From: Sulfurimonas sp.
Lineage (GTDB): Bacteria; Campylobacterota; Campylobacteria; Campylobacterales; Sulfurimonadaceae
Length of the DNA stretch: 64,000 nt
Direction: 5' to 3'
Assembly: GCA_002899765.1 (NCBI GenBank)
Contig: PPDH01000042.1
Coordinates: 28,284-92,283 of the forward strand
The stretch's first letter is position 1. Every line of letters starts with the position of its first letter. The position numbers were made by a program, and so were the translations under genes. Under the pieces are notes generated by a model. That model was not told where the DNA came from. It saw only the letters and a list, made by a program, of their open reading frames with translations, and did not search any database. Below, piece after piece: positions 1 to 64,000 of this stretch.

Positions 1-1583
1 GTAAAATTGTAGGACCGGATGCAAATCTTCAAACTTTAGCACGCGGTGTAAACACAGTAATGCTTGATACCGGCTCTAAAGAGTTAATTGATTTACATGC
101 AAAGATGTTTAAAAAACACGGTACGACGACTATTAGAAATTTTGATGCACTCAATGATGTGGAAAACCTAAAATATTCAGGTGAGAGAATCGTGCATCAT
201 GGACTAAAACATGAAATTGTTGTGACCATGATGGACTTACCTCCGGGTTGTTACGGTGCTCACACTGTTGAATTTTACGAAAAAACATTGCGTGAGATAT
301 TGGACAGCGGTATTCCTTACAACAGTATCTGTTTTAAAGATGCATCGGGGACATCAAATCCGCAAAAAGTGTTTGAAACTATTCAGATGGCTAGACGTTT
401 AATCCCTGAGGGAACACATTTAAGACTTCATACACATGAGACGGCAGGCGTTTCTGTTGCGGCATACATGGCTGCACTCGAAGCCGGTGTAGACTGAATA
501 GATATGGCAGCAGCACCTGTAAGCGGTGGAACAAGCCAGCCTGATATTTTAACTATGCTTCACGCGACTAAAGGGATGGATTATGATCTTGGTGGTTTAG
601 AGATAAATAAAATTTTAACTTATGAAAAAGAGCTTCAAAACTGTATATCAGATTACTTTATGCCGCCTGAAGCGACAATGGTATCTCCGATAATCCCGTT
701 TTCTCCGATGCCTGGAGGCGCACTTACGGCAAATACTCAAATGATGCGCGATAACGGTATTTTGGATAGATTTCCGGAGGTTATTGCAGCTATGACCGAG
801 GTTGTAGAAAAGGGCGGTTACGGTACATCTGTTACTCCTGTCTCTCAATTCTATTTTCAACAAGCACTCAATAATGTTATGCAAGGTCCTTGGAACGCCA
901 TTGCTCCCGGTTATGGGAAGATGGTTCTTGGGTATTTTGGCAAAACTCCTGTTGCACCGGATCCTGAAGTTGTAAGAATTGCTTCTGAAAAGCTAGGTTT
1001 AGAACCTACTACAGAAAAAGCTCTTGATTTGGCAAATGCCGATGAGAGTAAATCTTTAAGTAACTGGATTAATAAGCTCAAAGAAGAAAATATTGAAATA
1101 ACCGAAGAGAATATTTTCATAGCAGCGGCTTGTCATGAGAAAGGTATCGCTTTTCTCAAAGGAGAGGGCGAGTTAAATGTTCGTAAAATATCAGATATGA
1201 AAAAAGAAGAAGGAAGTTCAAAGATGGGTAATGGAAGCTATACTGTAGTTGTAGACGGTCAAAAATTTAGTGTTCAAGTTGCAGAGGGTAATGTTGATAT
1301 TCAGGTTACAGAGGTAAATGGAGAGAGTACGGAACCTTCGACTCCTAAAGTAGTTACAACATCAGGCACTCAGTTAGATATAAAAGCTCTTTTACCAGGC
1401 AGTGTTTGGAAAATAGTTGCTAATCCGGGTCAGAGCGTAAATGAGGGCGATGTTATTATGATTTTAGAGTCTATGAAGATGGAAATAGACATTGTAGCGC
1501 CAAAAGGCGGTGTTATAAAATCAATAAATGTTGCTACTAACGATAAAGTAGTCGAAGGTCAAGTCGTAGCAGTGCTAGGATAA
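1..1583 (+). pseudogene. oadA: Oxaloacetate decarboxylase alpha subunit / pyruvate carboxylase subunit B (carboxyltransferase barrel plus C-terminal biotinyl domain). The 5' end lies outside the window, and the frame is interrupted by one in-frame TGA at 495-497.
   Basis: The frame is open from nt 3. ORFs 60-497 and 504-1583 share one frame (both starts are multiples of 3). The peptide is contiguous across the stop: ...HTHETAGVSVAAYMAALEAGVD*IDMAAAPVSGGTSQPD. A biotinylation motif ESMKME lies near the C-terminus. oadB follows 6 nt later. Confidence 0.8.
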
Positions 1584-1588
1584 TCTAG

Positions 1589-2923
1589 ATGAAAAAAAAT
1601 GTTATAAAAATTCTTACGCTGCTCATGCTATTTGGTTTTAGCTCGCTCTATGCCTCAGGTTCTGCTGCAGATACTTCTTCACATGAAGTAAGTACTAAAA
1701 AAGTTGAAACATATCAGACACAGTCATTTGGTGAAATGATTGAGGGTTTTATAAATTCTACGGGTATTAAAGCTTTTGTGAGCCCAAATCCAGATGAGTT
1801 AAGTTCTCATGGCGAAAAAATGAGTGATTTTCATAAATCTTGGGGCAGAATAATCATGATACTTATTGCATTTCTGCTCTTTTATCTCGCTATTGCAAAA
1901 GGTTTTGAGCCTCTGCTTCTTTTGCCGATAGGATTTGGCGGGCTTTTGGCAAATATTCCTGTTGCAGGAATCGCAGGACCAGACGGATTTTTAGGTATTA
2001 TGTATGAGATGGGCTTGGCAAACCAGTTTTTCCCTATTCTTATATTTATGGGAGTAGGTGCTATGACTGATTTTGGTCCGCTTCTGTCAAATCCAAAAAC
2101 TGCACTTCTTGGCGGTGCCGCACAGTTTGGGATATTTGGAACACTCGTAGGAGCAGTTGCTCTTGCACAGTATACTCCTCTTTTTGATTTTACGTTGCAA
2201 CAAGCTTCTGCAATCTCGATTATAGGTGGAGCTGACGGTCCAACCTCTATCTTTATTGCAACAAAACTTGCCCCTGAACTGCTAGGTGCGATTGCCGTCG
2301 CTTCTTACTCATATATGGCTATGGTTCCTATAATTCAGCCTCCTATCATGAAGGCACTTACGACTGATGCCGAGAGAAGAATTAAAATGAGTACAATGCG
2401 CCATGTCTCTCGTTTGGAAAAATTAGTTTTCCCTATCATGGTTTTAGTGCTTGCCATCTTGGTTCTTCCTGATGCTACGCCTCTTATCGGTGCGTTTATG
2501 TTTGGTAACTTTCTTAAAGAGAGTGGTGTTGTCGATAGACTCTCAGATACAATGCAAAATGCGCTTATCAATATAGTTACTATCTTTTTAGGATTAGCCG
2601 TTGGTTCAAAATTGGCAGCAGATCAGTTCTTAGTTGCGGATACTTTGGCAATTTTAGCGCTCGGTGTTGTGGCATTCTCGGCAGGAACAGCGGCAGGTGT
2701 TATTATGGCTAAGATTATGAACCTCTTTCCAGGAAATAAGATAAATCCGCTTATCGGTTCTGCAGGTGTTTCTGCCGTTCCAATGGCGGCTCGTGTATCT
2801 AATAAAGTCGGTATGGAGTATGACCGCTCAAATATGCTTTTAATGCATGCAATGGGTCCAAATGTTGCGGGTGTTATCGGTTCGGCCGTTGCTGCGGGTA
2901 TTCTTATATCACTTTTTAGTTAA
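1589..2923 (+). CDS. oadB: Oxaloacetate decarboxylase beta subunit (Na+-translocating decarboxylase membrane subunit), with an extra N-terminal signal/TM-like segment of about 40 aa
   Basis: 444 aa polytopic membrane protein with OadB-type segments ([39 protein letters not shown]). It lies immediately downstream of oadA. Confidence 0.85.
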
Positions 2924-2942
2924 GCCATTTTTATTAAAAATT

Positions 2943-3002: not shown

Positions 3003-4517
3003 TTATATGGAATAATTATTTTGAGTTTGTGAGTTTATGTCTATTGATTTAAACTCACGTATAAGTTCTATTTGACGATTAGACAAGTATGCTTTTATAT
3101 CATGGATATTTTTTTGGCTAAGTTCATAAAGAACTACTATATTATAATCACGCTTATTTTCCTCTATCCTATAAATGCTTCCTAATGTACTTATTGTTAT
3201 TAACCTGCCTTTTAATTTTAGGCTTATGACCACTTTGATTCTTGTGCCTACCTCTATTCCGGCGGGGAGAGCATCTGTTTTTAACTTTGCAGAAACCTCT
3301 GATATATCCAAGACACTTGATTCACCGGGAAATTTTATATTTTTAAAGTATAACGTGCATCCATGATTAGCATCAGGTTCTAAGCGGATGTATTTTCTAT
3401 CGGCTGCGCTTCTTGATGCAAAAGTTACATCATCAATGACAATAGTTTGATTGTCAGAATCGATACTTTTTACCGATTTACAAATAACATCTTTTGGGAA
3501 TATTTCTGAGGTTATTGTCATATATCTAGTTATTTGTACAATTTTTAGTTGGGTATTGACTGTTTTTAGTGTGAAACTTTCTTTATTTATCTCTGTTATA
3601 ACTGCAGAGTTAACAATTGTCAATCCTTTATAAAAGTTGTGTATTTTAACTTCTGAAGAGTTGTCTTTAACAACTTGTAGAAGAGTTAAAATAGTCATCT
3701 TATCTTTTGAGTTTTCATCATTTTTTGCTGCATTTGAGTCAAAAAGAGACATTAGGTTTAGCTCTGTAACATCATCAAAAGAGAGAATGTAATAATCCTC
3801 TTTCTCAGGAATACTTCTTAGTTTTAGTATAAGGTGGCGTTTTTCGCCTTTATGGTTTTGTATTTTAGTATGATATAGCTTTCCGAGGTTTTTTACAGCG
3901 GTATTTATCCATTTTGATGAAGGAGTGCTGTATAAAAATTCTTTGTGTTCAAGTAGAAGTTTGTCGGCATCACCATATTTTTCATAGAACTCTTCTATAT
4001 TTTCAATACCAAAAAATTCATCGAAACGTCGGTTTACTAAAACAAATTTGTCTTTGTGCAGCATAATTACAATGTTGTTTTGATAGTTGAAAATATTTTG
4101 CAACTGATTTAAAAAAACACGGCTATTCTCTTCCTTGTGTATAGATATAACTGCATCGTAAAGAGTATTCACAAGTTCCGTTGCTTTTGCAGGTTTATGC
4201 AGGTAAGAAAACACACCCAATTTAATAGCTGTGTACAAATGCTTTTTTTCATCATAAGCCGAGAGGATTATAATTTTGCAATCAGGCTCTATCTCTTTAA
4301 TCTTTTTGATCATTTCAAAACCGTTCATGCCAGGCATATTTAAATCTGTTATAACGATATTGGGTCTAGAATGAATGCACTCAACATAACCTTCTTGACC
4401 ATTATTTGCTATAAAAATAGTTTTAAATATTCTGCTTAAAAGAGAGCGTATATTTTTTGAGAGACCTAAATTGTCTTCAACATACAAAATTGAAATTTTC
4501 TCAGAGAGGTTTTGCAT
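3003..4517 (-). CDS. Hybrid response regulator: N-terminal CheY-like receiver, central sensory/PilZN-like region, C-terminal PilZ-like domain
   Basis: Receiver motifs are present (ILYVEDN, ITDLNMPGMNG, phospho-acceptor Asp context, LHKP). The C-terminus carries RKYIR (RxxxR) followed by DISEVS (a near-canonical D-x-S-x-x-G PilZ motif). Confidence 0.7.
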   Translation of the reverse strand: MQNLSEKISILYVEDNLGLSKNIRSLLSRIFKTIFIANNGQEGYVECIHSRPNIVITDLNMPGMNGFEMIKKIKEIEPDCKIIILSAYDEKKHLYTAIKLGVFSYLHKPAKATELVNTLYDAVISIHKEENSRVFLNQLQNIFNYQNNIVIMLHKDKFVLVNRRFDEFFGIENIEEFYEKYGDADKLLLEHKEFLYSTPSSKWINTAVKNLGKLYHTKIQNHKGEKRHLILKLRSIPEKEDYYILSFDDVTELNLMSLFDSNAAKNDENSKDKMTILTLLQVVKDNSSEVKIHNFYKGLTIVNSAVITEINKESFTLKTVNTQLKIVQITRYMTITSEIFPKDVICKSVKSIDSDNQTIVIDDVTFASRSAADRKYIRLEPDANHGCTLYFKNIKFPGESSVLDISEVSAKLKTDALPAGIEVGTRIKVVISLKLKGRLITISTLGSIYRIEENKRDYNIVVLYELSQKNIHDIKAYLSNRQIELIREFKSIDINSQTQNNYSI

Positions 4518-4607
4518 CTCTTGTATTTTTTAATTCATTAAGTTTTAATCTTTTGTGATAAGGTAATTTATTCTATTTTAAAAAACCTTTAGCACTTATT
4601 AATGGTT

Positions 4608-5696: not shown

Positions 5697-6494
5697 ATGC
5701 GAATTTTTATTGTTGTTGTTTTACTTTTTAGTTTTTGTCATGCAAAAGTATATTATGCAAATGTTGAACCTTATGAGATGAGTGATATATCCTCAAATGT
5801 TTCAGGTTTAGTAGTCAGTGCAGATGAAGCTTTGATAGGAAGAGTTCTCTCTTCTAGACCATATATAGAGATTGATTCTGAGGTTGATGTAAAAGAGCTT
5901 AGACTTACTAGAGAAAAACTGATGTATATAAAAAATTCTTTAGAGATAAATGAAGCTGTTTTGGTTAACTTAGAAGATTCGCTTGTAAAAAAAAGAGAGA
6001 ACTACAGAAAAATAGAGCCTCTTAAATTTAAATCTTCCGTTGAGAAAGATAGAGAGTTTTATGATTTGATTACAAGTGAAAATCTTTATCTCAACACAAG
6101 AAAAGAGATTCAAAATTTAAAAGTTCAGATATCTGACTTGCAACTAAGAGAAGTTCAGCTTGAGAAAAGCATCAAAGATAAAAAATTGGTTGCAGAGGGT
6201 TTTGTTCTTTATGAGATGCTTGTAAAACCGGGACAAGTTGTAGGTATGGCTGCTCCATTGGCGAAGGTTGCCGATGTATCCAAAGCTCTGCTTAGCGTAT
6301 ATCTTGATGAGTCTGACGTTTTAAATGCAAAAGAAAAAATTGTTTATATTGATGAAAAAAAAACTTCTTATAGAGTATCAAGGCTTTTAAATATTGCCGA
6401 TAGTAAAAATATATCTAAGTACATGGCTCAGATAGTTATAGATTCGCCAGAACTCTTCTCTAAGCTTGTTAAGGTGGAACTAAAAAATGAGTAG
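5697..6494 (+). CDS. HlyD-like / barrel-sandwich periplasmic adaptor protein with signal peptide
   Basis: 265 aa with an N-terminal signal sequence, a lipoyl-like hairpin (SNVSGLVVS...), a central coiled coil and a C-terminal beta region. It overlaps the next gene by 8 nt. Confidence 0.55.
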   Translation: MRIFIVVVLLFSFCHAKVYYANVEPYEMSDISSNVSGLVVSADEALIGRVLSSRPYIEIDSEVDVKELRLTREKLMYIKNSLEINEAVLVNLEDSLVKKRENYRKIEPLKFKSSVEKDREFYDLITSENLYLNTRKEIQNLKVQISDLQLREVQLEKSIKDKKLVAEGFVLYEMLVKPGQVVGMAAPLAKVADVSKALLSVYLDESDVLNAKEKIVYIDEKKTSYRVSRLLNIADSKNISKYMAQIVIDSPELFSKLVKVELKNE

Positions 6495-8220
6495 TGTCAC
6501 GGCATGTCCGCTGGACTGCTATGATGCCTGTGAAATTTTATTTAGCGATGGAAGATTAAAAGGTTTAAAGAGCGGTCATACGCAAGGATTTTTGTGTCCT
6601 CACATGAACCATTATGAAAAACATGCAACTCTGAAGACGCCGCGATACAAAGGCAAAGAGATAAGCCTTGAAGAAGCACTTTTAAAACTTAAAGAGATGA
6701 TATTCTCGCATGAGAAGAGTGAAATACTGCACTATAGAGGAAGTGGTAATTTTGCTTTGATGCAAGAAGTTACAGATCATTTTTTTGCTTCATACGGAGC
6801 GGTTTTAACAGAGGGAACTCTTTGTGACGGAGCAGGTGAAGCGGGGATAATCGAGGGCAGAGGCAGCAATAAAAATATGTCGCTGCATGAGGTGGCAAAG
6901 TCCGAGGTTGTGATATTTTGGGGAAGAAATCCTCATACGACTTCTAGTCATCTTCTGCCTTTTATAAAAGATAAGAAAATTATTGTAATTGACCCGATTA
7001 AAACAAGAATTGCTAAGAGTGCAGATTTGCATCTTCAGTTAAAACCCAACACCGACCTGCTTTTAGCAATGCTGCTTAGTCGTTTTCTGCATATTGAAAA
7101 TGGCTGCGATGAAGAGTTTTTAGACGCACATGCAAGTGATTATGAAGAGTATTATGAGTTAACGCAAAACATCAGGATAAAAGCTGTTTTGGAGCAAATC
7201 GGTGTTTCTTTGGGACAGTTAGGAGAAATCTTAGCTATGGTAAAAGATAAGAGAGTTGCCATAGTCTGCGGTGTGGGTATACAGAAGTATAGCAACGGAG
7301 TTGATGTCATGAGAGCAATTGACGCATTTGCTGCTATGCTTGGGCTTTTTGGCAAAGAGGGATGCGGTGTGAGCTATCTAGGCTCTTCAAGAGAAGGAGT
7401 AGTTTCGCCTTTTAATAAGAAAGCTAAAAAAGTCTCTAAAGTAGATACGGAGTTTGCAGACTTTAAAACGGTTTTTATTCAGGGTGCAAATCCGCTCTCG
7501 CAGATGCCAAATTCGCTTAGAGTAAGAGAATCTATAAGCAAGGCGCGCAATGTTGTCTATTTTGGGCTTTATGAGAATGAGACAAGCGCGGCAGCAGATC
7601 TGGTTATACCTGCTAAGAGTTTTTTATATAAGAATGACGTTAGAACTTCATACTCTCATAACGTGATGTCATTTATGCCAAAAGTTGCGCACAGCGATAT
7701 AGGAATAAGCGAGTACGATTTGGCTGCTTATCTATGCAAAGAGTTTGATATTGAGCTTGAGAGTGAGGATTTTTATATAAAACATTTTAAAAATTTTGCC
7801 GTGCAAAAGATTGACGGTTCTTGGTATGTGGAAAATAGAGAAGAGATACCATACAAAGACGGTTTTGATACAAAGAACAAAGAGTTCGTTTTTTTAGATG
7901 AGCTTGACTATAAAGTGGATGAAGATAAGGGCTTGCATCTTATTACCTGCAAAAGTCCAACAAGCTTAAACTCACAATTCAATCGGGAAGAGAGTGTGCA
8001 TCTGCATAGTTCTTTAGGCTATAAAGAGGGAGAGATGCTAACTATATCTTCGGCAGATGGAAGCGTGGAGTTGAGAGTGAAGCATAATGATGATTTACGT
8101 GAGGATTGTATTTTGATTTACAGTGGAACAAGAGGCGTTAATAATTTGACAACATCAAAACATGCACTCTATGCAAAGAGTGCTATATTTCAAGAAAACA
8201 GAGTGGAGATAAAGAGATGA
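6487..8220 (+). CDS. Cytoplasmic molybdopterin-family oxidoreductase (no Tat signal), N-terminal Cys-cluster motif
   Basis: 577 aa. The N-terminus reads CPLDCYDACE...C (a 4Fe-4S-type motif of the molybdopterin oxidoreductase family). Typical VIFWGRNP and IQGANP segments are present. Confidence 0.7.
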   Translation: MSSVTACPLDCYDACEILFSDGRLKGLKSGHTQGFLCPHMNHYEKHATLKTPRYKGKEISLEEALLKLKEMIFSHEKSEILHYRGSGNFALMQEVTDHFFASYGAVLTEGTLCDGAGEAGIIEGRGSNKNMSLHEVAKSEVVIFWGRNPHTTSSHLLPFIKDKKIIVIDPIKTRIAKSADLHLQLKPNTDLLLAMLLSRFLHIENGCDEEFLDAHASDYEEYYELTQNIRIKAVLEQIGVSLGQLGEILAMVKDKRVAIVCGVGIQKYSNGVDVMRAIDAFAAMLGLFGKEGCGVSYLGSSREGVVSPFNKKAKKVSKVDTEFADFKTVFIQGANPLSQMPNSLRVRESISKARNVVYFGLYENETSAAADLVIPAKSFLYKNDVRTSYSHNVMSFMPKVAHSDIGISEYDLAAYLCKEFDIELESEDFYIKHFKNFAVQKIDGSWYVENREEIPYKDGFDTKNKEFVFLDELDYKVDEDKGLHLITCKSPTSLNSQFNREESVHLHSSLGYKEGEMLTISSADGSVELRVKHNDDLREDCILIYSGTRGVNNLTTSKHALYAKSAIFQENRVEIKR

Positions 8221-9401
8221 GTGATATAGTAGATTTGGATAAAAAGTATGTTTTACCGACATATGCAAGAGCAGATGTTGAGTTTGTAAGCGGTAATAAT
8301 GCTAGATTGGTTGATTCGCATGGCAAAGAGTATATAGATTTTGCTTCAGGTATAGCAGTTGTAAGTGTAGGACATGCAAACAAAAGAGTAAATGACGCGA
8401 TATGTAAACAACTCTCAAATATTACGCACACTTCAAACCTCTACTATATTGCTCCGCAGGCTCGTGCGGCGCAGAAAATAGTTGATGCCAGTGGATATGA
8501 TATGAAGTGTTTTTTTGGAAACAGCGGAGCCGAAGCAAACGAGGGTGCTATAAAGATAGCGAGAAGATTCGGTGAAAAAGACGGTGAGGTAAAGAGATAT
8601 AAAGTTATAACGCTTCAACACTCTTTTCACGGCAGAACGATTACGACGGTAAAAGCAACGGGTCAAGAGAAGATGCACAACTATTTTGGACCTTATCCTG
8701 ACGGGTTTGTCTATGCCGATGATATCAATCATGTAGCATCTCTTGTAGATGAGCATACATGTGCCGTTATGATAGAGCTTGTTCAAGGCGAGGGCGGTGT
8801 TCAGCCTCTTGATAAAGAGGCTGTTCAAAAGTTGGCAAAGTTTTTAAAAGAGAAAAATGTGCTGCTTATGATTGATGAGGTTCAAACGGGAGTTTATAGA
8901 ACAGGAAAATTTTTAGCATCAAACTACTATGACATAGAACCTGATGTCGTTACTCTCGCAAAAGGTCTTGGTGGCGGAGTTCCTATCGGAGTTGTTATGA
9001 CGACTCTAAAAGAAGTCTTTAGTGCGGGAGACCACGGTTCTACATTTGGCGGAAACTTTTTAAGCACTACCGCTGCGTGTGAAGTAATGGATATACTTAA
9101 CGAAATGAACGATAGCGGTAAACTTCAAGAAGGTATAGCGTACTTTGATAGTGAGCTGGAGAAGTTTTATGCTGTTCATAAAGATATATTTACATCTAAG
9201 GTAGGTATTGGGATGATGTGCGGGTTACGCGTAAGAGATGCAGATACTCTTAGTAAAATAATCTCAAATGCAAGGCAAGAGGGTGTAATAGTTTTAAAAG
9301 CTGGACGTGACACACTTAGACTTTTACCGGCACTTACAATAACAAGAGAGGAAATAGATGAAGGCTTCAAAGCTCTTAATCGCGCTGTCGATTCTTTATA
9401 G
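8217..9401 (+). CDS. argD: Acetylornithine aminotransferase (class III PLP aminotransferase)
   Basis: 394 aa with ArgD-like motifs: YVLPTYAR, GIAVVSVGH, FFGNSGAEANEGAIKIAR, DEVQTGVYRTGK, TLAKGLGGG. The ATGA overlap with the upstream gene is at 8217-8220. Confidence 0.85.
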   Translation: MSDIVDLDKKYVLPTYARADVEFVSGNNARLVDSHGKEYIDFASGIAVVSVGHANKRVNDAICKQLSNITHTSNLYYIAPQARAAQKIVDASGYDMKCFFGNSGAEANEGAIKIARRFGEKDGEVKRYKVITLQHSFHGRTITTVKATGQEKMHNYFGPYPDGFVYADDINHVASLVDEHTCAVMIELVQGEGGVQPLDKEAVQKLAKFLKEKNVLLMIDEVQTGVYRTGKFLASNYYDIEPDVVTLAKGLGGGVPIGVVMTTLKEVFSAGDHGSTFGGNFLSTTAACEVMDILNEMNDSGKLQEGIAYFDSELEKFYAVHKDIFTSKVGIGMMCGLRVRDADTLSKIISNARQEGVIVLKAGRDTLRLLPALTITREEIDEGFKALNRAVDSL

Positions 9402-10557
9402 TACACTGCTTTTTTCAGAGGAGCCTCTTGAGGGCTTTATTTCAGAAAATAAAAATGAACAGTTTAGGTATGACTATGAAAAAAATGAAGCTGAGAGCTC
9501 AAAGCTTCGTGATTCATGGATTGCACCTTTAAATCTAAACTACAATTACTCAAAAAGTAATCCTTATACAAAGCAGCAGACTTCCAAGAATGCTTCCATA
9601 AAGATGGATCAGCCTATATTTCAAAGTGGTGGAATTTACTATGGGATTAAGTTTGCACAGGCTTCTAAAATCTACTCCGACTACTCCGTAGATGTTGCGA
9701 AAAGAAAACTTGTTAAAGATGCAGTCTCTCTTTTGATGCAGATAAAACAGATAGATTTGAAGATAAGCAAACAGAAACTGCAGATTGAAAATTCTGAGAT
9801 AAATCTCGCTCAAAAGAGAGAGGATTATCTAAACGGGCAGCTTGATTCAGGTTTTTTAGATAGTGCGATAATCGATAGAAACATTGTTATACAGGCACTT
9901 TATGACCTTCAGACAAACAAAGAGAGATTAATCTCAAAATTTAACGCAATAAGTGATTTGAATCATGAAGAGGCATTTGTTCCGACTTTAAAACTTTTAA
10001 CACAAGAGCAGTTTTTGCAAAATAATATAGTTCTTGGCATGTCTGAGGGCGAGATAGTAAGAAACAGATATGCTCAAGATGTTAGAGTGGCAAAATATCT
10101 TCCAAAGGTAAACCTAACTGCGGGCTATAATTGGGATAAAAGCGATACCCAGTATCAGTTTGGAGCAAATGAGAAAGATTACTACAATATAGGCTTTAAA
10201 GTTACGCTTCCTATTGATATAAACAGCTTTAGAGATGTGGAGTCTGCTAAAATTGACTATTTCAAATCGCAGCTTGTTGCTGAGGATAGAAAAAGAGAGC
10301 TTGTGGCAATTTTTGAACAGGTTATGCAAAATATAGATAATTTTGAGAAGAAAAAACAGCTGAGTGTCGAGAACATGGATATTTACGAGAGACTTTTAGA
10401 AGATACAAATGATTTATTCACAGCAGGATACAAAACGAAGTATGATGTAGAGCTTTTACAAAACTCTGTTGAGATTCAAAAGAGTGATGTGGAGATATAT
10501 GAGATAGATAAACAGCTTGAATTACTCACTCTTTACGAGATGTATAAAGATGATTAG
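9358..10557 (+). CDS. TolC-family outer-membrane efflux protein
   Basis: 399 aa with a signal peptide (MKASKLLIALSILYSTLLFS) and two coiled-coil/beta repeats typical of OEP/TolC proteins. It overlaps the argD 3' end by 44 nt in another frame, with a GAGG ribosome-binding site upstream. Confidence 0.65.
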   Translation: MKASKLLIALSILYSTLLFSEEPLEGFISENKNEQFRYDYEKNEAESSKLRDSWIAPLNLNYNYSKSNPYTKQQTSKNASIKMDQPIFQSGGIYYGIKFAQASKIYSDYSVDVAKRKLVKDAVSLLMQIKQIDLKISKQKLQIENSEINLAQKREDYLNGQLDSGFLDSAIIDRNIVIQALYDLQTNKERLISKFNAISDLNHEEAFVPTLKLLTQEQFLQNNIVLGMSEGEIVRNRYAQDVRVAKYLPKVNLTAGYNWDKSDTQYQFGANEKDYYNIGFKVTLPIDINSFRDVESAKIDYFKSQLVAEDRKRELVAIFEQVMQNIDNFEKKKQLSVENMDIYERLLEDTNDLFTAGYKTKYDVELLQNSVEIQKSDVEIYEIDKQLELLTLYEMYKDD

Positions 10558-10586
10558 AGCTAAAGGTCAATGCAGCGAGGCACTAA

Positions 10587-11585
10587 ATGCCGAGTCGTAG
10601 ATTTAGCGACTACATGTCGGAGTGGCTCTACGGTAAAGAGGGTTACTATGCAACCTATAAAAATATAGGCAAAAGCGGTGATTTCTACACTTCAGTCAGT
10701 ACAAGCAAGTTTTTCGGCGGCACAATCGCAAAGCATATTATCTCTCTTGTTGATGAGGGTTTTTTAGATAAAGATGCTACTATCTGTGAGATAGGTGCGC
10801 ATCACGGCTATTTTTTGGCGGATGTCATAGAGTTCATCTACACACTGCGTCCTGAACTTTTAGAGAGCTTTAACTTTGTCATAATAGAGAGATTTGAAGC
10901 ACTTAGAGAGTTTCAAAAAAACTACTTTGCCGAGAGTTTCGGTGATGCCCTAAAACTTACTCACTATGAATCACTCAGCTCTCTTAAGTGTAAAAATGCC
11001 TTTTTCATAGCAAATGAGATATTTGACGCATTTCCATGCGAGCTCTACTACAAAGGTAAAAGCGCAATAGTAGAGGGTCATGAAGTCATTTTTGACGTAG
11101 ATAATATGTGGGTAGAGCAAAAAGCAAAAAAGTATCATAAAGACAGAGGCGAGATAGCTCTTGGATATGAAGAGTTTGCTCTTGAGATGGCATCTACATG
11201 TGATAAATTTGAGTTTATGAGTTTTGATTACGGAGAGATGCAGGCACGTCCTGATTTTTCATTAAGAGTCTACGCAAAACATGAAGTTATCCCGTTCTTC
11301 GATGAAAATATAAAAACAGAAGAGCTGTTTGCAAAGTCGGATATTACATATGATGTAACATTTGAACATGTAAAGGATGCTTACGAAGAAGCAGGGGTAG
11401 AGTTTATAGAGCTAAAAGCTCAGATGAGCGCTCTTGTTAACATGGGGATTCTAGAGCTTTTAGAGATACTTAAAGAAAACGTCAAAGAAGAGATATATAA
11501 GCAAGAGCTTGAGAAAGTAAAAATATTGATACTGCCAAATTTTCTCGGTGAAAGATTTAAGATGATACGGTTTAGAAAGGGTTAA
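10587..11585 (+). CDS. SAM-dependent methyltransferase, MidA/DUF185-like
   Basis: 332 aa with the pattern YYA...GDFYTSVSTSKFFG ... EIGAHHG ... ANEIFDAFP, as in MidA/NDUFAF7-type methyltransferases. Confidence 0.6.
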   Translation: MPSRRFSDYMSEWLYGKEGYYATYKNIGKSGDFYTSVSTSKFFGGTIAKHIISLVDEGFLDKDATICEIGAHHGYFLADVIEFIYTLRPELLESFNFVIIERFEALREFQKNYFAESFGDALKLTHYESLSSLKCKNAFFIANEIFDAFPCELYYKGKSAIVEGHEVIFDVDNMWVEQKAKKYHKDRGEIALGYEEFALEMASTCDKFEFMSFDYGEMQARPDFSLRVYAKHEVIPFFDENIKTEELFAKSDITYDVTFEHVKDAYEEAGVEFIELKAQMSALVNMGILELLEILKENVKEEIYKQELEKVKILILPNFLGERFKMIRFRKG

Positions 11586-11586
11586 A

Positions 11587-11618
11587 ATATGACATGTCAA
11601 AGGGCATGTCATATTTTT
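11587..11618. terminator. Rho-independent, probably bidirectional terminator between the methyltransferase gene and pilT
   Basis: Perfect 10-bp inverted repeat ATATGACATG (11587-11596) / CATGTCATAT (11605-11614), followed by TTTTT. It sits in a convergent gap. Confidence 0.7.
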
Positions 11619-12699
11619 ACATATTGTGAATTATCTTCATCAACTCTTCGGGTCTGTTTGAAGCCGTAATTGCGACCTCTTTTGAAATAACTTTTTTACG
11701 AAGCAGCACTAATAGTTGGTCTGTTTGTGTAGTCATATTTGTCTCATTCTGGTTTAACTGCATTTGAGAGTAGATTTGGTGGACTTTATCTTCTCTGATT
11801 AAGTTTTGAATAGCAGGATTTGTTATGAGAACTTCTTGCGTTGCAACTATACCGCCTCCGATTCTTGGCATAAGAGATTGGGATATGACAGAGATAAGCG
11901 AAGATGCGAGCTGTGCTCTTACTTGTGCCTGCTCTCCTGCATCAAAAACATCGATAATACGGTTGATTGTTGCAGGTGCGGAATTTGTATGCAGAGTTCC
12001 AAAAACTATGTGTCCGGTCTCAGCTGCGGTAAGAGCTGCAGAAATAGTCTCTTTATCTCTCATTTCACCTACTAGAATAACATCGGGATCTTGTCTTAGT
12101 GCATATTTGAGAGCTGTTGCAAATGAGTTTGTGTCTGCACCGACTTCTCTTTGAGAAAAAAGTGATTTGATGTTTGTATGAACAAACTCAACCGGATCTT
12201 CGATAGTAATGATATGCTTACTTACGGTCAAATTAATTTCATGAAGCATTGATGCAAGAGTAGTTGACTTACCGCTGCCCGTAGGTCCTGTTACGAGAAT
12301 AAGCCCCTTTTCTCTTTTGACAAGCTCTTTAAAGATTGGGTTGTTGTTAAATTTCTCAAGCGGCGGAATATCTATGGGAATCATACGAAATGCACATGCA
12401 ATACCGCCGATTGTTCTGTAGTAGTTAGCACGAAAACGTCCAACATTTTCAAGTTCAAAAGAGAAGTCAAGTTCATTTTTCTCTTCAAATATTTTCTTTT
12501 GCTTATCCTCAATAAGAGCATAAGCCATCTCTTCTATCTCTTTGGCATTTAATATAGGAAGGTTAAGAGGTTTTAGTGATTTGTCAATTCTGATTTGAGG
12601 TTCACTCCCCGGAACAAGATGTAAGTCCGAAGAGTCAAAGTGTAAAACACTTTTGAGCAGTTTTTTGATATCAATGGGTTTTTTTGTTTCTTCACTCAT
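11617..12699 (-). CDS. pilT: Type IV pilus retraction ATPase PilT-family protein
   Basis: 360 aa with a Walker A motif (GPTGSGKSTT), Asp box, Walker B (ILVGEMRD) and the PilT-specific motif HIVFGTLHTNSA. Confidence 0.85.
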   Translation of the reverse strand: MSEETKKPIDIKKLLKSVLHFDSSDLHLVPGSEPQIRIDKSLKPLNLPILNAKEIEEMAYALIEDKQKKIFEEKNELDFSFELENVGRFRANYYRTIGGIACAFRMIPIDIPPLEKFNNNPIFKELVKREKGLILVTGPTGSGKSTTLASMLHEINLTVSKHIITIEDPVEFVHTNIKSLFSQREVGADTNSFATALKYALRQDPDVILVGEMRDKETISAALTAAETGHIVFGTLHTNSAPATINRIIDVFDAGEQAQVRAQLASSLISVISQSLMPRIGGGIVATQEVLITNPAIQNLIREDKVHQIYSQMQLNQNETNMTTQTDQLLVLLRKKVISKEVAITASNRPEELMKIIHNM

Positions 12700-12713
12700 A
12701 GCATGTCACGGTA

Positions 12714-13004: not shown

Positions 13005-13113
13005 GTAACTATTCCTTCATAACGATTTATAGGATTGTAACAAAAAATATCTATCTATTTGATGAAACTTTAACAAACTATGCGATATTATTTTGAACTT
13101 TTAATGATTAGAG

Positions 13114-13716: not shown

Positions 13717-13720
13717 TATT

Positions 13721-24523: not shown

Positions 24524-25225
24524 TCATCTAAAAATGATTTGGATGTCTTTGTGTAGAAGTGAGCGGTTAAATTTATTTTTGGACTCTTTTAAATCTGCAA
24601 TGCTTGTACCTGTATCTAAAAACTCTTGTATATAGTAGACATTTTTGTAGCCTCTGGTTTTTAAATCATATATAATTTTATTTATATCGTTTTCGTCTAA
24701 TAAATCTCTGTGGATAGTAGTTCTGGCTTCAAAAGAGATGTCGCTCTTGATTAAAAAATCAAGTGTCTTTGAAAATTCGTCAAATTTATTTGAGTGTGTT
24801 ATCCGGCTGAATTTTTCTTCGGGTGCTTTATAGTCAAGTGCCACATAATCCAAAAGATTTAGTTCAAGAAGCTCTTTTACATGTGTAAAATTTGTACCGT
24901 TGGTGTCGAGTTTTATCTTAAAACCAAGCTCTTTTATTTTGCGGCAAAATGGAACTAAATCATAAGAAGAGGCTTCGCCGCCCGATAAGACAACCGCTTC
25001 GAGCAGATTTACTCTTGTTTTTAAAAAATCGAGGATATCGTTATAGCTGTATTTGCCCTCTTTGGCAAAAACTATATCTTTGTTGTAGCAGTAATCGCAT
25101 CGCATATTTCACCCACTAAACCACACTATACACGATAGGTGGTCTGGATAATCCAAGTGGGTAAATGATGTTAAATCATATATAAACTTAGCACTCAGTG
25201 AATTGTTTTCTCTGTTTGTGCTCAC
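24524..25225 (-). pseudogene. nrdG: Anaerobic ribonucleotide reductase activating protein (radical SAM), with an in-frame TGA (25109-25111) at the position of the first Cys of CX3CX2C. Candidate GTG start at 25225.
   Basis: The ORF-track ORF starts MRCDYCYNKD. Reading upstream in the same frame gives ...KFIYDLTSFTHLDYPDHLSCIVWFSG*NMRCDYCYNKD. This is the canonical activase N-terminus (DYPG...V.F..GCN.RC..C.N) with TGA in place of Cys. The frame is open back to TAG at 25235-25237. Confidence 0.75.
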
Positions 25226-39795: not shown

Positions 39796-39813
39796 AAATA
39801 ATCTCTTTTTCGG

Positions 39814-40194
39814 CTAGTTTTTTTCTGCAACTATTCCAAGATTTGTAAAGTTTTTTTGTATTAAAGCATCCAAAAGAATTACAAAGTGGTCAAACTTTGC
39901 ATTTTTATCACAATTTATATGAATAGGCGTATCTTCTTTATAGTCACATAATTTGTGCTCTACGTCATCTATGAGAACAACCGTTTTGTCAAAGAGAATC
40001 TTTCCGTCTTGTTTAATTGTAATAGTTAAATTTTTTTTATTTTCCTGTTTTGCTGCTACTTCTGACTCCGGAAGATCAACAGGAATAACTCCCTTCGCAA
40101 CAAAAGTAGCAGTGGTTAATACTATTACAAGAAGTACAAGCATGATGTCTATAAAAGGCACGACATTGATAGAATCAAATTTTTTAATTTGCAT
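39814..40194 (-). CDS. exbD: Biopolymer transport protein ExbD
   Basis: 126 aa. INVVPFIDIMLVLLVIVL is the typical ExbD/TolR TM segment. It overlaps exbB by 11 nt. Confidence 0.85.
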   Translation of the reverse strand: MQIKKFDSINVVPFIDIMLVLLVIVLTTATFVAKGVIPVDLPESEVAAKQENKKNLTITIKQDGKILFDKTVVLIDDVEHKLCDYKEDTPIHINCDKNAKFDHFVILLDALIQKNFTNLGIVAEKN

Positions 40195-40627
40195 GTTTTT
40201 TCTTTTGATGAATATCCCAAAGAGCTAAAACAACCTCGATTTTTCTAGCCAAATGGTTATAAAACACCGTAGCAGGGATAGCTACTAAAAGACCCATCGC
40301 CGTAGCTTTAAGAGCAAGTGCCAAAGATGTCATGATTATCTTAACATCCAAATCATTGCTTTGCCCCATGGCATAAAAGGTGATGATTATCCCAAATACG
40401 GTACCCAAAAGACCAATATATGGAGCATTTGAACCAAATGTTGAGATAATGTTGATATTGTTTGTAAGAACGATTTCAAGTTCTTCTTTTGTCTCAAAAT
40501 TGCTTACATCTATGCTTTTATAAAACATAAGTCTCTCAATCCAAAACCAAAAAGCGATGAAACTCATAACTCAAAGAAGTCCAATAATGCCATAATCAAC
40601 ACCATCTTTAATTAGTTCTATGTTCAT
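40184..40627 (-). pseudogene. exbB: ExbB/MotA/TolQ-family proton channel, with the N-terminal 18 codons cut off by an in-frame TGA at 40571-40573
   Basis: The ORF-track ORF is 127 aa. The same frame continues upstream: ATG(40625-40627) MNIELIKDGVDYGIIGLL*VMSFIAFWFWIERLMFY. The C-terminal part carries the ExbB signature (APYIGLLGTVFGII ... ALKATAMGL). Confidence 0.75.
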
Positions 40628-40641
40628 ATATCTGCCTAATA

Positions 40642-44346: not shown

Positions 44347-45267
44347 ATGACGATTGAACAAATAAGAGAACTGTTGCAAAACAGCGCTAAAGATGCAGCA
44401 GATGAGTTTAAAAGACTCTTTCACGGGCGCGGCGGACTTTATGAAGGGTACAAACATTTAACTATAGACTCAATTGATACTATCTTACATGTATCGCTCT
44501 ATTTCCAAGAGAGAGGTGAAAATGAACTCATAGAGATGTTAAAAGAGTTTGCAGCTTCAAGCAGATATAAAACTGTCGTAGTTCAAAGACGCTATATAAA
44601 GGGTGCTCCAAGCGAAGTTATTCTAGGAGATTTAGAAGAGAATCTCTTTGTAGTTGAAAATAACATGAAGCTAAAACTCAATCTTCTCTCAAATCAAAAC
44701 AGCTTCTACTTTCCCGATATGAAAAACGGCAGAGCGTTTGTGAGAGAAAACGCAAAAGATAAAAATGTGCTTAACCTCTTTAGCTATACATGTGCCTTTA
44801 GCGTCGCGGCAAAACTCGGCGGCGCACGAAGTGTGGTAAATATCGACATGAGCAAAGGCGCACTTTCTGTAGGGCGTGCTAATCATCATCTTAACGATAT
44901 AGATACAAAAGGTGTTAGTTTTTTACCTTACAATATTTTAAAATAATTCTCACGCATAAAGAAAAAAGGATTGTACGATTTGATTATCATAGATCCGCCG
45001 AGCTTTCAAAAAGGGAGTTTTGAAGCTACAAAAGATTACCAAAAAATCATCAAAAAACTGCCCGAAATTGCATCGCAGGAGTGTATACTGCTTGCATGTC
45101 TGAATTCACCGGATTTGGACTCAGATTTTTTGATAGAGCTTATACGCGAGTTTGCTCCCGGTTTTACATTTATAGAGCGTCTTGAAAATGTAAAAGAGTT
45201 TGCAAGTCAAGATGAAGAGAGAAGTCTTAAAAATCTTGTATTTAAAACAAAGGTAACATCTGTGTAG
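44347..45267 (+). pseudogene. RlmI/YccW-like class I SAM-dependent methyltransferase, interrupted by an in-frame TAA at 44944-44946
   Basis: ORFs 44347-44946 and 44971-45267 share one frame. The peptide ...VLNLFSYTCAFSVAAKLGG...VSFLPYNILK*FSRIKKKGLYDLIIIDPPSF is contiguous with the RlmI pattern (DVFKLL...GEKFDVIVMDPPKF). Confidence 0.7.
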
Positions 45268-55135: not shown

Positions 55136-55161
55136 GTCATTGCGAGCAAAGCGCGGCAATC
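55136..55161. repeat. REP/MITE-like element GTCATTGCGAG-N-GCAATC, copy B
   Basis: GTCATTGCGAGCAAAGCGCGGCAATC lies 68 nt downstream of cysS. It is preceded by a second small hairpin (GTCAC...GTGAC, 55098-55127). Confidence 0.6.
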
Positions 55162-55225
55162 TAGTTTTTAGAGGTGTCCATGATTCTAGTTTGATATTAA
55201 AAATTTTAAAAAAATAAAGGTACAC

Positions 55226-57804: not shown

Positions 57805-58356
57805 TTGTTAAATCTACCTAATATTTTGGCATCTTCACGTATTATTTTGGCTCCGATTATGTTTTGGATTATCTTAAATCCAGACTACTTTACGGATGCG
57901 GGTTATCATGTCTCGTGGAACTACTATTTTGCCTCGCTTCTTTTTGTTCTAGCAAGCGTAACGGACTTTTTTGACGGTTACATCGCAAGAGAGTGGAACC
58001 AGATGACAATGCTTGGCGCAATCATCGACCCGCTCGCCGACAAGATGCTTATAATCGCCGCATTTTTGGGACTAATGATGATAGGAGAAGCAAGCGCTTG
58101 GGCTATCTACATTATCATCATCCGCGAGCTTTTTATCACTGGAATCCGCACCGTAGCGGTAAGTGAAGGGTTAAGCGTAAAAGCCTCATGGGCGGGAAAA
58201 GTAAAAACCGTTGTGCAGATGATTGCCATCGGATTTTTGCTTATGCACTGGCCCCTTGGTAGTGAACTTCTCTGGTTGGCGGTAGCGCTCACGCTCTACT
58301 CAGGTTTTGAGTATCTTTGGGCGTTTAGAATAGCACTTTTAGGAGTTAAAAAGTAA
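57805..58356 (+). CDS. pgsA: CDP-diacylglycerol--glycerol-3-phosphate 3-phosphatidyltransferase
   Basis: 183 aa with the CDP-alcohol phosphotransferase motif DFFDGYIAR...G..IDPLADK. It has a TTG start with a TAAGG ribosome-binding site. Confidence 0.85.
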   Translation: MLNLPNILASSRIILAPIMFWIILNPDYFTDAGYHVSWNYYFASLLFVLASVTDFFDGYIAREWNQMTMLGAIIDPLADKMLIIAAFLGLMMIGEASAWAIYIIIIRELFITGIRTVAVSEGLSVKASWAGKVKTVVQMIAIGFLLMHWPLGSELLWLAVALTLYSGFEYLWAFRIALLGVKK

Positions 58357-59408
58357 TGAGTTTTTTAGTATCTTTAATAGTAATATCCGCACTTATCTTT
58401 TTTCACGAACTCGGTCACTACTTTGCAGCTCGTGCAATGGGTGTGTATGTAGAAGTTTTCAGCATAGGTTTTGGACGAAAAATAGCCTCGTTTAAAAGAT
58501 GGGGAACTTAGTGGAAAATAGCAGTAATCCCTCTTGGGGGATATGTGAAAATGAAAGGTCAGGATGACAGCGACCCTACGAGGAAGAGTTATGATGAAGA
58601 CAGCTACAATGTAAAAACACCTTCGCAAAAGATTTTTATCCTGCTTGCAGGTCCATTGGCAAATTTTGTTTTGGCTTTTTTGCTCTACTTTGTTATCGCT
58701 CTTGGCGGACCAAATATCCTCTCTCCCGTGATAGGAAATGTAGTAAAAGATTCTCCCGCTTTCGTTGCAGGTTTGGAGACAAACGACACCATACGCTCCA
58801 TAAACGGTACTTTGATTACTACATGGAAAGAGATGGCAGAGGTTATAGAAACATCTGAGGGTCAGCTGAATTTTGAGATTGAGAGAGCGGGTCGTCTTTA
58901 CTTTATAGCACTTTCGCCAAAAATAACACAAACCACAAATATGTTTAATGAAGTGATAGAAAAAAAGATGATTGGCATAGGAAGTGCGGGAGTTTCGCAT
59001 AAACTTGAACTCGGTATGGGAGAAACACTCTCTTATGCAAGTGAGCAGACTGCCTTTGCTTCTACTTTGATATTTACGGTACTTAAAAAACTCATAGTAG
59101 GAGAAGTTCCCGCAAACGAGCTTGGCGGGATAATCTCCATAGTAAAACTGACATCGGATGCAACCGATGCAGGCTGGATGAGCGTTCTGTTTTTTGCCGC
59201 ACTCATCTCCGTAAACTTGGGGGTTTTAAACCTTCTTCCTATTCCTGCGCTCGATGGCGGACATATCATGTTTAACCTCTATGAGCTTATTTTTAGACGT
59301 GAGGTAAACGAAGAGATTATGGTAAAATTAACCATTGCGGGCTGGGTGATACTTTTTTCACTTATGGGGCTTGGACTGTATAACGATATAAATAGACTGG
59401 TGGGGTAA
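58356..59408 (+). pseudogene. rseP: RseP/site-2 zinc metalloprotease (M50), interrupted by an in-frame TAG at 58509-58511
   Basis: The ATG at 58356 (TAATG overlap with pgsA) gives MSFLVSLIVISALIFFHELGHYFAARAMGVYVEVFSIGFGRKIASFKRWGT*WKIAVIPLGGYVKM.... This is contiguous with ORF 58545-59408 in the same frame. HELGH and the C-terminal NLLPIPALDGGH motifs are both present. Confidence 0.8.
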
Positions 59409-60100: not shown

Positions 60101-60194
60101 CTGCCGCATCATTGCAAGTTCCCACTCTGTCATTGAGATTGCCGCGCTTGTCATTGCGAGGCTTTAGCCGCGGCAATCTCTAAGTGCGGCAATC
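60101..60194. repeat. Composite cluster of GTCATTGCGAG/GCAATC elements (copy C) forming a strong hairpin; probable bidirectional terminator
   Basis: CATCATTGCAAG, GTCATTGAGATTGCCGCGC, GTCATTGCGAGGCTTTAGCCGCGGCAATC and GTGCGGCAATC occur in series. There is a perfect 12-bp inverted repeat GAGATTGCCGCG (60135-60146) / CGCGGCAATCTC (60169-60180). Confidence 0.7.
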
Positions 60195-60648
60195 AAATCT
60201 TTAAAAATTCTCTAAAATTATGAATAATATACTCTTTTGTTATTTTTTCTTTTGTCTCTTTTAGCTTTTTTAGTCTTTGAGAGAGTATATATTTCTCTAC
60301 TATATTTAAATTCTTTATTTTGTTATAAATAGTAATAATAAACTCAAAATCTTTATTCATATCTTCTGCGCATGATTCTACAAACAACTTTTCTATATCC
60401 TTGGTATCTTGTAGTTCAAAAATTTTACCATATATATAAAATATTTCTTCATATGTAAATAGAGGTTTTATAGATTCTTTTGCATATTTTTCTAAGACTA
60501 TATTTATCTCTCTAAGTTTATCGGCGTTATCACTCTCTTTTTTATAGCTAAACAGATATGCATAAAGATTGGGCTTGCTTTTTTTCCAGTTACGCAGAGT
60601 AGCTCTTGATACTTCAAATTTATTTACGATATCTTTTATCTGTATCAA
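60193..60648 (-). CDS. Small HTH (MerR/excisionase-like) DNA-binding protein, lineage-specific
   Basis: 151 aa. The N-terminal IKDIVNKFEVSRATLRNWKK is a helix-turn-helix motif. The gene is very AT-rich and flanked by a 318-bp extremely AT-rich spacer. Confidence 0.5.
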   Translation of the reverse strand: MIQIKDIVNKFEVSRATLRNWKKSKPNLYAYLFSYKKESDNADKLREINIVLEKYAKESIKPLFTYEEIFYIYGKIFELQDTKDIEKLFVESCAEDMNKDFEFIITIYNKIKNLNIVEKYILSQRLKKLKETKEKITKEYIIHNFREFLKI

Positions 60649-61644: not shown

Positions 61645-61859
61645 TCGCTTCCTATTTTACATGTTATCTTTTTGGAAACGAGGTTGAAACCTCGTCAACG
61701 ACGAAGCTAAAGTATCACTTCCAAACAACAATATTTCACACATTAACATCTTGACTAATTTCTTTACAAATTAAACTAATATAACACTGGATATAACGAT
61801 GGATGAGTAAACTACCCTGTTTATCAAACTAAAAATCAAATACAAGGCAGGATTAAGTT

Positions 61860-64000
61860 ATGGAAGAAAGCAAGTTACTTTTAGCGGAGTTGTACACGGC
61901 ATACTTTAATAGAGCGCCTGATGCGGCAGGGTTGGCGTATTGGGTAGGTGAACTAGAGGGCGGCGTTATGAACTTTGACCAAATAGCTTCAAACTGGGCA
62001 AATGAGCAACCGGAATTTACCGATACTTATGGTGAAGATGTTGATAGCGACGCGCTAATCACTCAAGTATATGCAAATGTACTAGGACGAGAACCTGACG
62101 TTGATGGTGCAGCTTACTGGAGTGCAGAGCTATCAAATTGAAACATTCCTATGAATCAGTTTATTCAAGCTATAGTCAACGGCGCAAAAGCAGCTAGCGG
62201 AAGCGCGAGCGATGCAACACTTCTAAGCAATAAGGCTCAAGTCGGTGTAGCAATGGCAGATAGCGGCATAAATGATTTGGCTTTTGCTGCGCAAGTTGTT
62301 GCAACAGTAACGGCAGACCAAAGCACGGTCGGTATAGTTGAGAGTATTATAACTATGGCAGCGGCTGATACGGCTGGACTTGCAAATGCAACGTCAACAC
62401 TAGCGTCAGTTCAAGTTATCTTAGCAGATACTGATTCAGCAGCTACTCTTACGACAACTCTAGCAAATCTTAAGACCGTTATGCAAAACCTAACAGAAGA
62501 TATAACAGCGGGTACAGTAACAGATATCGCTGCTACTCTAACTGCGGCAACAGCGACGGTAGAAGCAGCGACAAAAGATGCATCGTTTGTAGCGGAGCCT
62601 GAAACACTTGCAAATAGTATAGCAACTAATCCGAGCGCGGTTGAAGAGAGTGCTGCTGCGGTTGTCGAAGAGGCTGCTACTCCTACTGAATCTACAACAC
62701 CGACGACTACTCCTTCAAGCTGCGGAAGTTCAACGCCTGCTCCGACTTTTACGGTAACAAATACGGAAGATTTCATAACATTCGGCGGAACTGCGACGGG
62801 AGATATCTCGATGAGTATAACTGATGATGTTGCTACATTTACAAGAGGCGGCATTGATGCGACGACGACTGCTGCTCTTGGCGGTACTGATGCTATCGCA
62901 GGAATTACCGTTGCTAGCGGACAAACACTAGCGGACACTGCGGCTGATTTGACTGGATTGACAATTGACGGTGAGGGAACCGTTAATGTAACTGCACTTG
63001 AAGATACTTTAGATGCCGATTTATCGGGGATTACGGCTACTACGGTTACGGCGACAGTAGTAGGGACAGACATAAGCACTCCATTAAATATGGAAACAAA
63101 CTTTGGAAAAGCTGTAGTTACGCTTACTGAGGGTTCAATCGATATTGCAGGGCTGGTAACATTAGGCACTGCCTCTTTCATTGTGGATGCAGGGGCAACG
63201 CTTAGAGTTGAGCAGAGTCTTATAAGCGGGCTTAATGTAACAGGTGAGGGTAATGTCTACGCAAATTTTGATGGTACTAATAATGATGCCGATTTATCTA
63301 ATGTACAGGTTGAAGGTGGAACCTCTGCAATAGTCATAGGTAATGCTGATCTTTCACAAAACACCACTTTGGATAATGTTAATGCCTTTAGTGTTTGGGA
63401 GACAAATTACACTCTTACTCTGACTGCAGAACAAGCAGCTAATGCACAGATTGTTAATGTTGGTAGTGTGATTATAAAAGATATCGATAGTACCACAGAC
63501 TTTTCAAATTTAATTGTTGCAGATACTCTAGCTGCTGTAGAAGGAGTTGTAGCTACTACTGTTAATCTTAGCAGTGTAGATCTATCTAAACTGACTGCTC
63601 TTACAGTTGACGATGAAGCAGATACTGTAGTCACGGCTACGGTAACCCCTGAACAATACGCAGCGTTAGTCGGAAAAGTCACACTGGGTACTAATGATAC
63701 ACTGGTTTCTACAGATACAGACATCCCGACTTCGACTATTGCTTCAGCTGCATTTGATGAGAACACAGGCACTTTCACACTAACAGGTACAAATTTTAAT
63801 ACCATCTTAGAAACTACGGAAGATGCCACAACCGATGTAAAAGCGAGACTTGACTGGAACAAACTGAGCTGGGATATAAACGGCGACGATGATTCTACGA
63901 CAAATGTAAGTTTTGCAGTAAGCGATATCGGCTCCGCAAAAGTTACAGATGCGACTACGCTTACAATCACGCTGACAAATACAAAAACAGCGGCACTCAT
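61860..64000 (+). pseudogene. Giant repetitive Thr/Ala/Asp-rich surface or secreted protein with N-terminal DUF4214 repeats. It runs off the window end and carries an in-frame TGA at 62139-62141.
   Basis: I translated the ATG 61860 frame codon by codon. Apart from the TGA at 62139-62141 it is open to nt 64000 (more than 710 codons). The peptide across the stop reads ...GREPDVDGAAYWSAELSN*NIPMNQFIQAIVNGAKA (DUF4214 pattern). The downstream part is absent from the ORF track only because it has no stop inside the window. Confidence 0.7.

Follow-up and report, generated by a model that had tools for sequence, protein, structure and literature searches.

In-frame stop codons in a Sulfurimonas metagenome contig as very likely by-products of a burst of G:C to T:A changes

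A 64,000-nucleotide stretch of a Sulfurimonas sp. metagenome-assembled genome (MAG) deposited in GenBank (locus_tag prefix C0627_), which forms part of a 95,679-bp contig and is referred to here as the window, carries conserved genes that are each interrupted by a single in-frame stop codon. Are these codons read by some translational device, are they ordinary nonsense mutations of a living lineage, or do they exist in the deposited sequence alone? An earlier note on the window had listed six such genes and offered three readings: nonsense mutations that survive only where termination-reinitiation or leaky UGA read-through rescues function, a hypermutator or mutagenised lineage, and substitution errors in the assembly. 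In the analysis reported here the stops, now numbering seven, are very probably by-products of a burst of G:C to T:A changes and not a form of recoding.

Seven stops within one class of change

The window was compared with sister sequences over the same region, namely the ENA contig ERZ794998 NODE_136 (95,625 bp, coverage 56), two JGI contigs (3300007102) and Logan contigs of the 2017 bioreactor run X1 (word depth ~61-67x), together with 173 related loci fetched for comparison; gene identities were assigned by Pfam. A scan of the GTDB set gave Sulfurimonas MAGs as the best matches, all of them relatives with amino-acid identities of 97% or less, and two scans of JGI metagenomes gave no near-identical contig, in a collection from which even the known JGI sister contig is missing. 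The PolA of the window is present in NCBI nr on a single contig, the one of 95,679 bp. One paper considered as a candidate for the source study (PMC5946492) deals with a different organism. The alignment of the window to NODE_136 and the X1 contigs runs without gaps at 99.9% identity (61.6 kb aligned), which bears out the impression of the earlier note that the window contains no frameshift. Against the X1 consensus and the ENA assembly it shows 59 substitutions in 64 kb and no insertion or deletion. Fifty-four of these 59 private differences are G:C to T:A changes (G>T or C>A when read from the relatives to the window), the other five being T>C at 29150, C>G at 29379, T>A at 39860, A>C at 57231 and A>G at 57261. 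Because the relatives, close and distant, show the X1 letter at every variant site that they cover, the T and A alleles are derived in the window. The density of G:C to T:A changes is ~0.84 per kb, or 2.3 per 1000 G:C pairs, and they fall into 31 missense, 13 synonymous, 7 nonsense and 3 intergenic changes.

All seven stop codons belong to this set of 54. The six described before were found at their reported positions, where translation shows that each breaks one continuous homologous frame, and a seventh was added on the minus strand (GAA to TAA, 4532-4530). In each of the six genes described before, both halves match one Pfam family model, in register and on consecutive parts. Alignment with orthologues recovered the ancestral codons of the six (GGA three times, TGC, TCA and GAG) and a single mutational spectrum; the stop-creating changes are thus GGA to TGA in three genes and TGC to TGA, TCA to TAA, GAG to TAG and GAA to TAA in one gene each. 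None of the seven stops is present in the ENA assembly or in X1, and the JGI assembly has only the one in the DUF4214 gene. The genes affected are as follows, in window coordinates.

3..1583, plus strand: oadA-like gene (HMGL-like, PYC_OADA and biotinyl domains); TGA at 495-497, ancestral GGA (Gly), G>T at 495
3003..4538, minus strand: response regulator (receiver domain and an unknown C-terminal part); GAA>TAA at codon 3, plus-strand C>A at 4532
24524..25225, minus strand: nrdG (anaerobic ribonucleotide reductase activase, radical SAM family); TGC>TGA at 25111-25109, plus-strand G>T at 25109
40184..40627, minus strand: exbB (MotA/ExbB family); GGA>TGA at 40573-40571, codon 19, inside the first transmembrane helix (TM1), plus-strand C>A at 40573
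44347..45267, plus strand: S-adenosylmethionine-dependent methyltransferase (PF10672, RlmI/RlmK-like); TCA>TAA at 44944-44946, C>A at 44945
58356..59408, plus strand: rseP (M50 site-2 protease with a PDZ domain); GAG>TAG at 58509-58511, G>T at 58509
61860..64000, plus strand, running past the window end: giant DUF4214 / RTX-like surface protein; GGA>TGA at 62139-62141, G>T at 62139

The OadA protein (598 amino acids), the PF10672 methyltransferase (306 amino acids) and RseP (350 amino acids) are intact in the ENA and JGI sister contigs, and NrdG (233 amino acids) is intact in the related contigs L001-L004. At the stop positions of OadA, ExbB and the methyltransferase the sister assemblies encode Gly, Gly and Ser, respectively. 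The stop in nrdG replaces the first cysteine of the radical-SAM CxxxCxxC motif (…WFSG*NMRCDYCYN…, the asterisk marking the stop), a position occupied by Cys in 18 of 18 related loci, and in 104 related loci the RseP position holds E, Q, D, K or R. Two of the genes bear a further change: rseP a second private one (G>V at 59080), and the response regulator an M>I at 4374 that is common to the window and the JGI assembly.

The 54 changes also favour one sequence context: in 45 of them a purine stands directly 3' of the mutated G. Among the first 53 changes its 3' neighbour is A in 28, G in 16, C in 8 and T in 1 (chi-square p=6.5e-6), and in the 54th, at 63692, it is A. AGA and TGA are the commonest trinucleotides (10 each), followed by TGG, GGA and CGG. 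Natural strain differences within the species, represented by 680 substitutions between L003 and L001, consist of transitions to 72%, and the spectrum of the window is therefore foreign to normal divergence.

The response regulator has 511 amino acids in the ENA and JGI gene calls and 504 in the window. In the automatic JGI gene calls (L090/L091) several genes differ in length between sources through the choice of start site alone; for this reason the length of an open reading frame (ORF) is by itself a poor test of whether a stop is shared. A 193-residue nrdG call in L005 (3211-3792) was considered as a candidate for a shared stop and rejected, as it reflects only the choice of start site and its Cys codon is intact.

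The gene neighbouring nrdG itself appears to be divided. The class III ribonucleotide reductase gene nrdD (25358-27454, minus strand) ends at 698 amino acids, and the glycyl-radical motif (…TRVMGYHRP…) is encoded by a separate 50-residue ORF (25188-25340, minus strand) that has its own AGGAGG site and overlaps the start of nrdG. The earlier note had regarded this junction as a possible frameshift; since the five related contigs L001-L005 are all arranged in this way, the split looks natural and is not among the mutations.

The exbB region carries several changes. In the JGI assembly (Ga0102541_1301719, L090) the exbB start codon is changed from ATG to ATT at 40625, again a G:C to T:A change, and the stop of the window lies 18 codons past this lost start, so that two independent changes fall in the same 60 bp; both leave the internal ATG at 40567 as the first usable start. 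The gene is part of a TonB-dependent uptake cluster (39136-42825, minus strand) whose 3.7 kb hold five non-synonymous private changes. A DsbD-like protein has P>Q, ExbD has K>I, the TonB-dependent receptor has both S>Y and L>I, and the fifth is the ExbB stop. Their density is not significantly above the local rate of change, and the cluster is noted for its coincidence with the JGI start loss.

Stop count, recoding and the ATG codons downstream

The earlier note held that roughly one broken gene in ten was far above expectation for a housekeeping region. We compared the changes with a neutral model in which each G:C site of the reconstructed ancestral window was weighted by the observed 3'-neighbour rates, for a total of 54 changes. 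The model predicts 8.9 nonsense changes where 7 are seen, and the frequency of stops therefore needs no special explanation. The other classes were expected at 34.6 (missense, 31 observed), 8.9 (synonymous, 13 observed) and 1.6 (intergenic, 3 observed), and the proportions as a whole do not depart from neutrality (chi-square p=0.28; ratio of non-synonymous to synonymous change, dN/dS, ~0.6, not significant). An excess of synonymous changes that appeared as a possible sign of selection under a flat model (p=0.018) was gone once the 3'-purine context was included (p=0.08-0.13). The genome is AT-rich and the codons GAA, GAG, GGA, TGC and TCA are therefore common; about one-sixth of G:C to T:A changes makes a stop, and roughly one gene in eight is truncated. 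The stop count is the ordinary yield of this class of change in AT-rich coding sequence.

Programmed recoding, whether as selenocysteine at the nrdG Cys codon, as reassignment of stop codons or by a suppressor tRNA, would draw some support from the nrdG TGA, which falls exactly on a Cys position, and from the involvement of all three stop codons. Against it, ENA, X1 and the related Sulfurimonas loci that cover a site all have an ordinary sense codon there as the ancestral state, and so has the JGI assembly with the exception of the DUF4214 stop; TAA, TAG and TGA terminate 29, 20 and 8, respectively, of the 58 ORFs listed for the window; and the stops are members of a set of 54 changes that all fall in one mutation class. 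No tRNA gene was found in the 64-kb window. The ATGA overlaps at 8217-8220 and 18182-18185, from which the earlier note had argued against a reassignment of TGA, are present in the ORF list, and that argument was correct. With sense codons in the orthologues and TGA in use as a terminator, recoding is excluded as an explanation; we regard it as effectively refuted and give it next to no chance. Whatever the origin of the changes, the stops are not to be read as a translational recoding system.

A second feature of the stops, also remarked on before, is that an in-frame ATG follows each of the four TGA codons closely, at +3 (oadA), +2 (nrdG), +2 (exbB) and +4 codons (DUF4214); in the response regulator one follows the TAA at +5. 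The window contains 2,670 sites at which a G:C to T:A change could create a stop, and 10.4% of these have an in-frame ATG within four codons, as compared with four of the seven stops observed (p=0.003). The proximity is statistically unusual, as had been claimed, but the pattern was noticed post hoc. TGA itself makes up 21% of the possible stops and four of the seven observed (p=0.037).

These figures, and the ATG at +5 of the seventh stop, are what would be seen if selection acted as a filter on a mutator, such that stops persist where UGA is leaky or where a near AUG allows termination-reinitiation. The total of nonsense changes is not depleted relative to the neutral expectation, however, and there is therefore no evidence that unrescued stops have been purged. 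Nor can selection raise the absolute number of rescued stops above the mutational input, which among 53 changes would be 0.9 where four are seen (p=0.013). Judged from the positions of the domains, the restart products would be damaged: a restart in nrdG would remove the first Cys of CxxxCxxC and so would not be expected to rescue NrdG, one in exbB would remove half of TM1 and likewise would not rescue ExbB, and one in oadA would split the carboxyltransferase domain. When the sequence ahead of the ATGs was read directly, no Shine-Dalgarno or AGGAG-like motif was found. The resemblance to termination-reinitiation and translational coupling consists in a start codon two to four codons past four of the stops; unlike the stops of such systems, those of the window are derived mutations and not ancestral gene boundaries, they come without conservation or a Shine-Dalgarno sequence, and the downstream products would lack essential parts.

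We consider the ATG-after-TGA pattern real but coincidental, without functional support, and survival limited by rescue, the first of the three earlier readings, improbable. Similarly low odds apply to the broader proposal that the bioreactor Sulfurimonas is an extreme G:C to T:A hypermutator, with ~12% of its genes truncated, whose surviving stops are enriched for UGA near AUG by translational rescue. Were it true, the enrichment would be an in situ footprint of translational rescue shaping the nonsense mutations that a mutator tolerates.

Possible in vivo and technical origins of the burst

The other two readings, a hypermutator or mutagenised lineage and substitution errors, both survive, now with the stops placed among 54 private changes in an 8-oxoguanine (8-oxoG) context. 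On balance we take the burst to have arisen in vivo, in a real mutator or mutagenised sub-lineage. In such cells 8-oxoG would pair with adenine and the mispair would be left uncorrected, giving dense G:C to T:A transversions. The source may be a sub-lineage whose 8-oxoG repair had failed, for example through a mutY defect, or a survivor of heavy oxidative mutagenesis, and it would have risen in a different bioreactor sample from that which yielded the ancestral ~61x consensus. Loss-of-function nonsense mutations would then simply have inactivated the truncated genes, without any translational device. To our knowledge, Campylobacterota generally lack MutM. The ratio of 54 to 5 is approximately what a ~100-fold rise in one class, of the kind expected of mutY mutators, would give, and it counts for an in vivo origin. 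Pfam identified no repair gene in the window, and a tblastn search of the window and the 173 fetched loci with E. coli MutY gave no homologue of MutY or Nth.

The spectrum has a close counterpart in MutY (GO-system) deficient mutators, whose human signatures are COSMIC SBS36 and SBS18 and in which G:C to T:A changes are near-exclusive, as they are here. In MUTYH-defective tumours, unrepaired 8-oxoG produces mutations at AGA and TGA and at GG sites and turns GAA and GAG into stops (PMC5478212). The window resembles that signature in that its oxidised G stands before A or G, at AGA, TGA and GG, and in its drift to stops from GAA, GAG and GGA. It differs from the signature in a weak transcribed-strand asymmetry, none having been reported in PMC5478212. 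Compared with MutY mutators in general, the density of changes is high for a free-living environmental population.

A further parallel is offered by the mutator lines of the E. coli long-term evolution experiment, which are said to carry thousands of near-neutral single-class substitutions in lineages with known generation counts and mutator alleles. The window is like these in its knocked-out genes, in the little purifying selection that is visible and in the similar setting of a continuous bioreactor; unlike them, it is a single 64-kb piece of a MAG.

The chief alternative to an in vivo mutator is a technical origin, in which guanine was oxidised before or during library construction, or altered by other processing, and the resulting G>T errors ended up fixed in the consensus as deposited. 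This could have come about through assembly from a handful of template molecules, through the use of amplified material or through editing of the consensus. The genes of the organism would then be intact and the stops would not exist in living cells. We hold this to be a genuine possibility, though one that we would not call probable. Oxidative processing artefacts are a recognised problem (Costello et al. 2013, as cited in PMC6974700). The window agrees with the 8-oxoG library artefact (COSMIC SBS45) in substitution class, in guanine-oxidation chemistry and in the indifference of the changes to gene function. The artefact consists of low-frequency read errors with an orientation bias, whereas the changes of the window are not at low allele fraction but stand in the contig consensus, and two of them recur in another assembly.

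Their presence in the consensus of a 95.7-kb contig is the first of four further observations that we count in favour of an in vivo origin. Damage at read level, at most ~1e-3 per G, would not be expected to prevail over the correct reads when a contig of that size is assembled de novo; a technical explanation would need roughly single-template coverage, which is not to be expected in a metagenome bin. The second observation is the pattern of sharing with the JGI assembly. This assembly differs from ENA and X1 at five positions in 53 kb, all of them G:C to T:A, of which those at 4374 and 62139 are common to the window (probability of chance sharing 5e-5) and those at 40625, 49698 and 54614 are not. 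Two shared and three unshared changes point to branching sub-lineages rather than independent noise; neither independent random damage nor the use of nested thresholds on a single read set would readily produce them, and they favour a real mutator over oxidative damage. Third, the N-terminus of exbB was changed independently in the window and in the JGI assembly (p about 0.003).

The fourth observation is an asymmetry between DNA strands, which would be unexpected for an in vitro process: the mutated G is on the transcribed strand in 29 of 50 cases as against 40% expected (p=0.0135). The asymmetry is concentrated in the 22.8-44.3 kb region (13/15; p=0.0008). In this block of minus-strand genes (22781-44300), the 13 changes have their G on the plus, transcribed strand, for which 42% would be expected; the two blocks of plus-strand genes show a slight trend only, in the same direction. 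Sequence context is a further point against a shearing artefact. The classic context of that artefact is CCG>CAG, or CGG when read on the G strand, and CGG accounts for only 5 of the 54 changes.

Several observations weigh against a living mutator, and a number of them speak for a technical origin. The class proportions are purely neutral, with nonsense changes at the neutral level and no sign of purifying selection, and catalytically essential or invariant residues have been changed, among them the NrdG cluster Cys, a Gly of RseP (59080) and a Ser of a YggS-like protein (60024). Extrapolated to 2.2 Mb, the load amounts to ~1,900 substitutions and ~240 truncated genes, which is heavy for a lineage abundant enough to assemble. 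At known mutator rates such a load would take some 10^4 generations or more to build up; otherwise it would require a mutagenic burst. In k-mer searches with variant-bearing words the derived alleles occurred in no indexed public run, the ~61x sister sample included, and X15, which is another sample from that study, has the ancestral letter at 11 of the 11 variant sites that it covers. Two low-depth assemblies of the study each show one private G>T change (at 665 in ERZ794995 and at 60496 in X15), and its libraries could thus carry G>T noise. Finally, four of the five differences that are not G>T lie close to one that is, at the scale of reads or fragments (29150/29217/29379, within 229 bp; 57231/57252/57261, within 31 bp); such groups could stem from clustered oxidative lesions, error-prone patch repair or single faulty molecules. 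The remaining probability falls to unknown processing steps or minor rivals.

In other respects the G>T changes are spaced in a Poisson-like manner, and neither their spatial clustering nor their strand runs depart from random in the window, apart from one change-free gap of 8.9 kb (5783-14704; p=0.016). Upstream of the window (L086 1-8412, 8.4 kb), five proteins (1,615 amino acids) are identical in the MAG and the sister assembly; the unmutated neighbouring proteins of the contig are PNV82137-PNV82144. The gap and these unchanged proteins hint at a block structure, produced by recombination with the ancestral population or by a mosaic consensus.

Consequences for the deposited genome and a probable small repeat

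The G:C to T:A burst is either a further example of a known phenomenon or a problem of assembly quality. If the changes are real, the window represents an environmental hypermutator with a clean 8-oxoG signature in which about one gene in eight has been knocked out, a natural counterpart of the mutator genome decay seen in laboratory evolution. The parallel exbB changes and the shared knockout of the giant surface protein would then hint that selection in the reactor, perhaps exerted by phage, acts on surface structures and on TonB-dependent uptake. If their origin is technical, a deposited MAG can hold ~1 error per kb of a single class, and such errors pose as pseudogenes and would distort counts of pseudogenes, estimates of dN/dS and any search for recoding.

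Separately from the substitutions, two related short intergenic sequences at ~55149-55170 and 60182-60203 (AAGCGCGGCAATC… and AAGTGCGGCAATC…) coincide with loose ends of contigs. In run X1 these sites show a contig joint from 60180 to 55149 and a spike in depth of ~303x as compared with 64x, and the two sequences probably belong to a small repeat element present in multiple copies.

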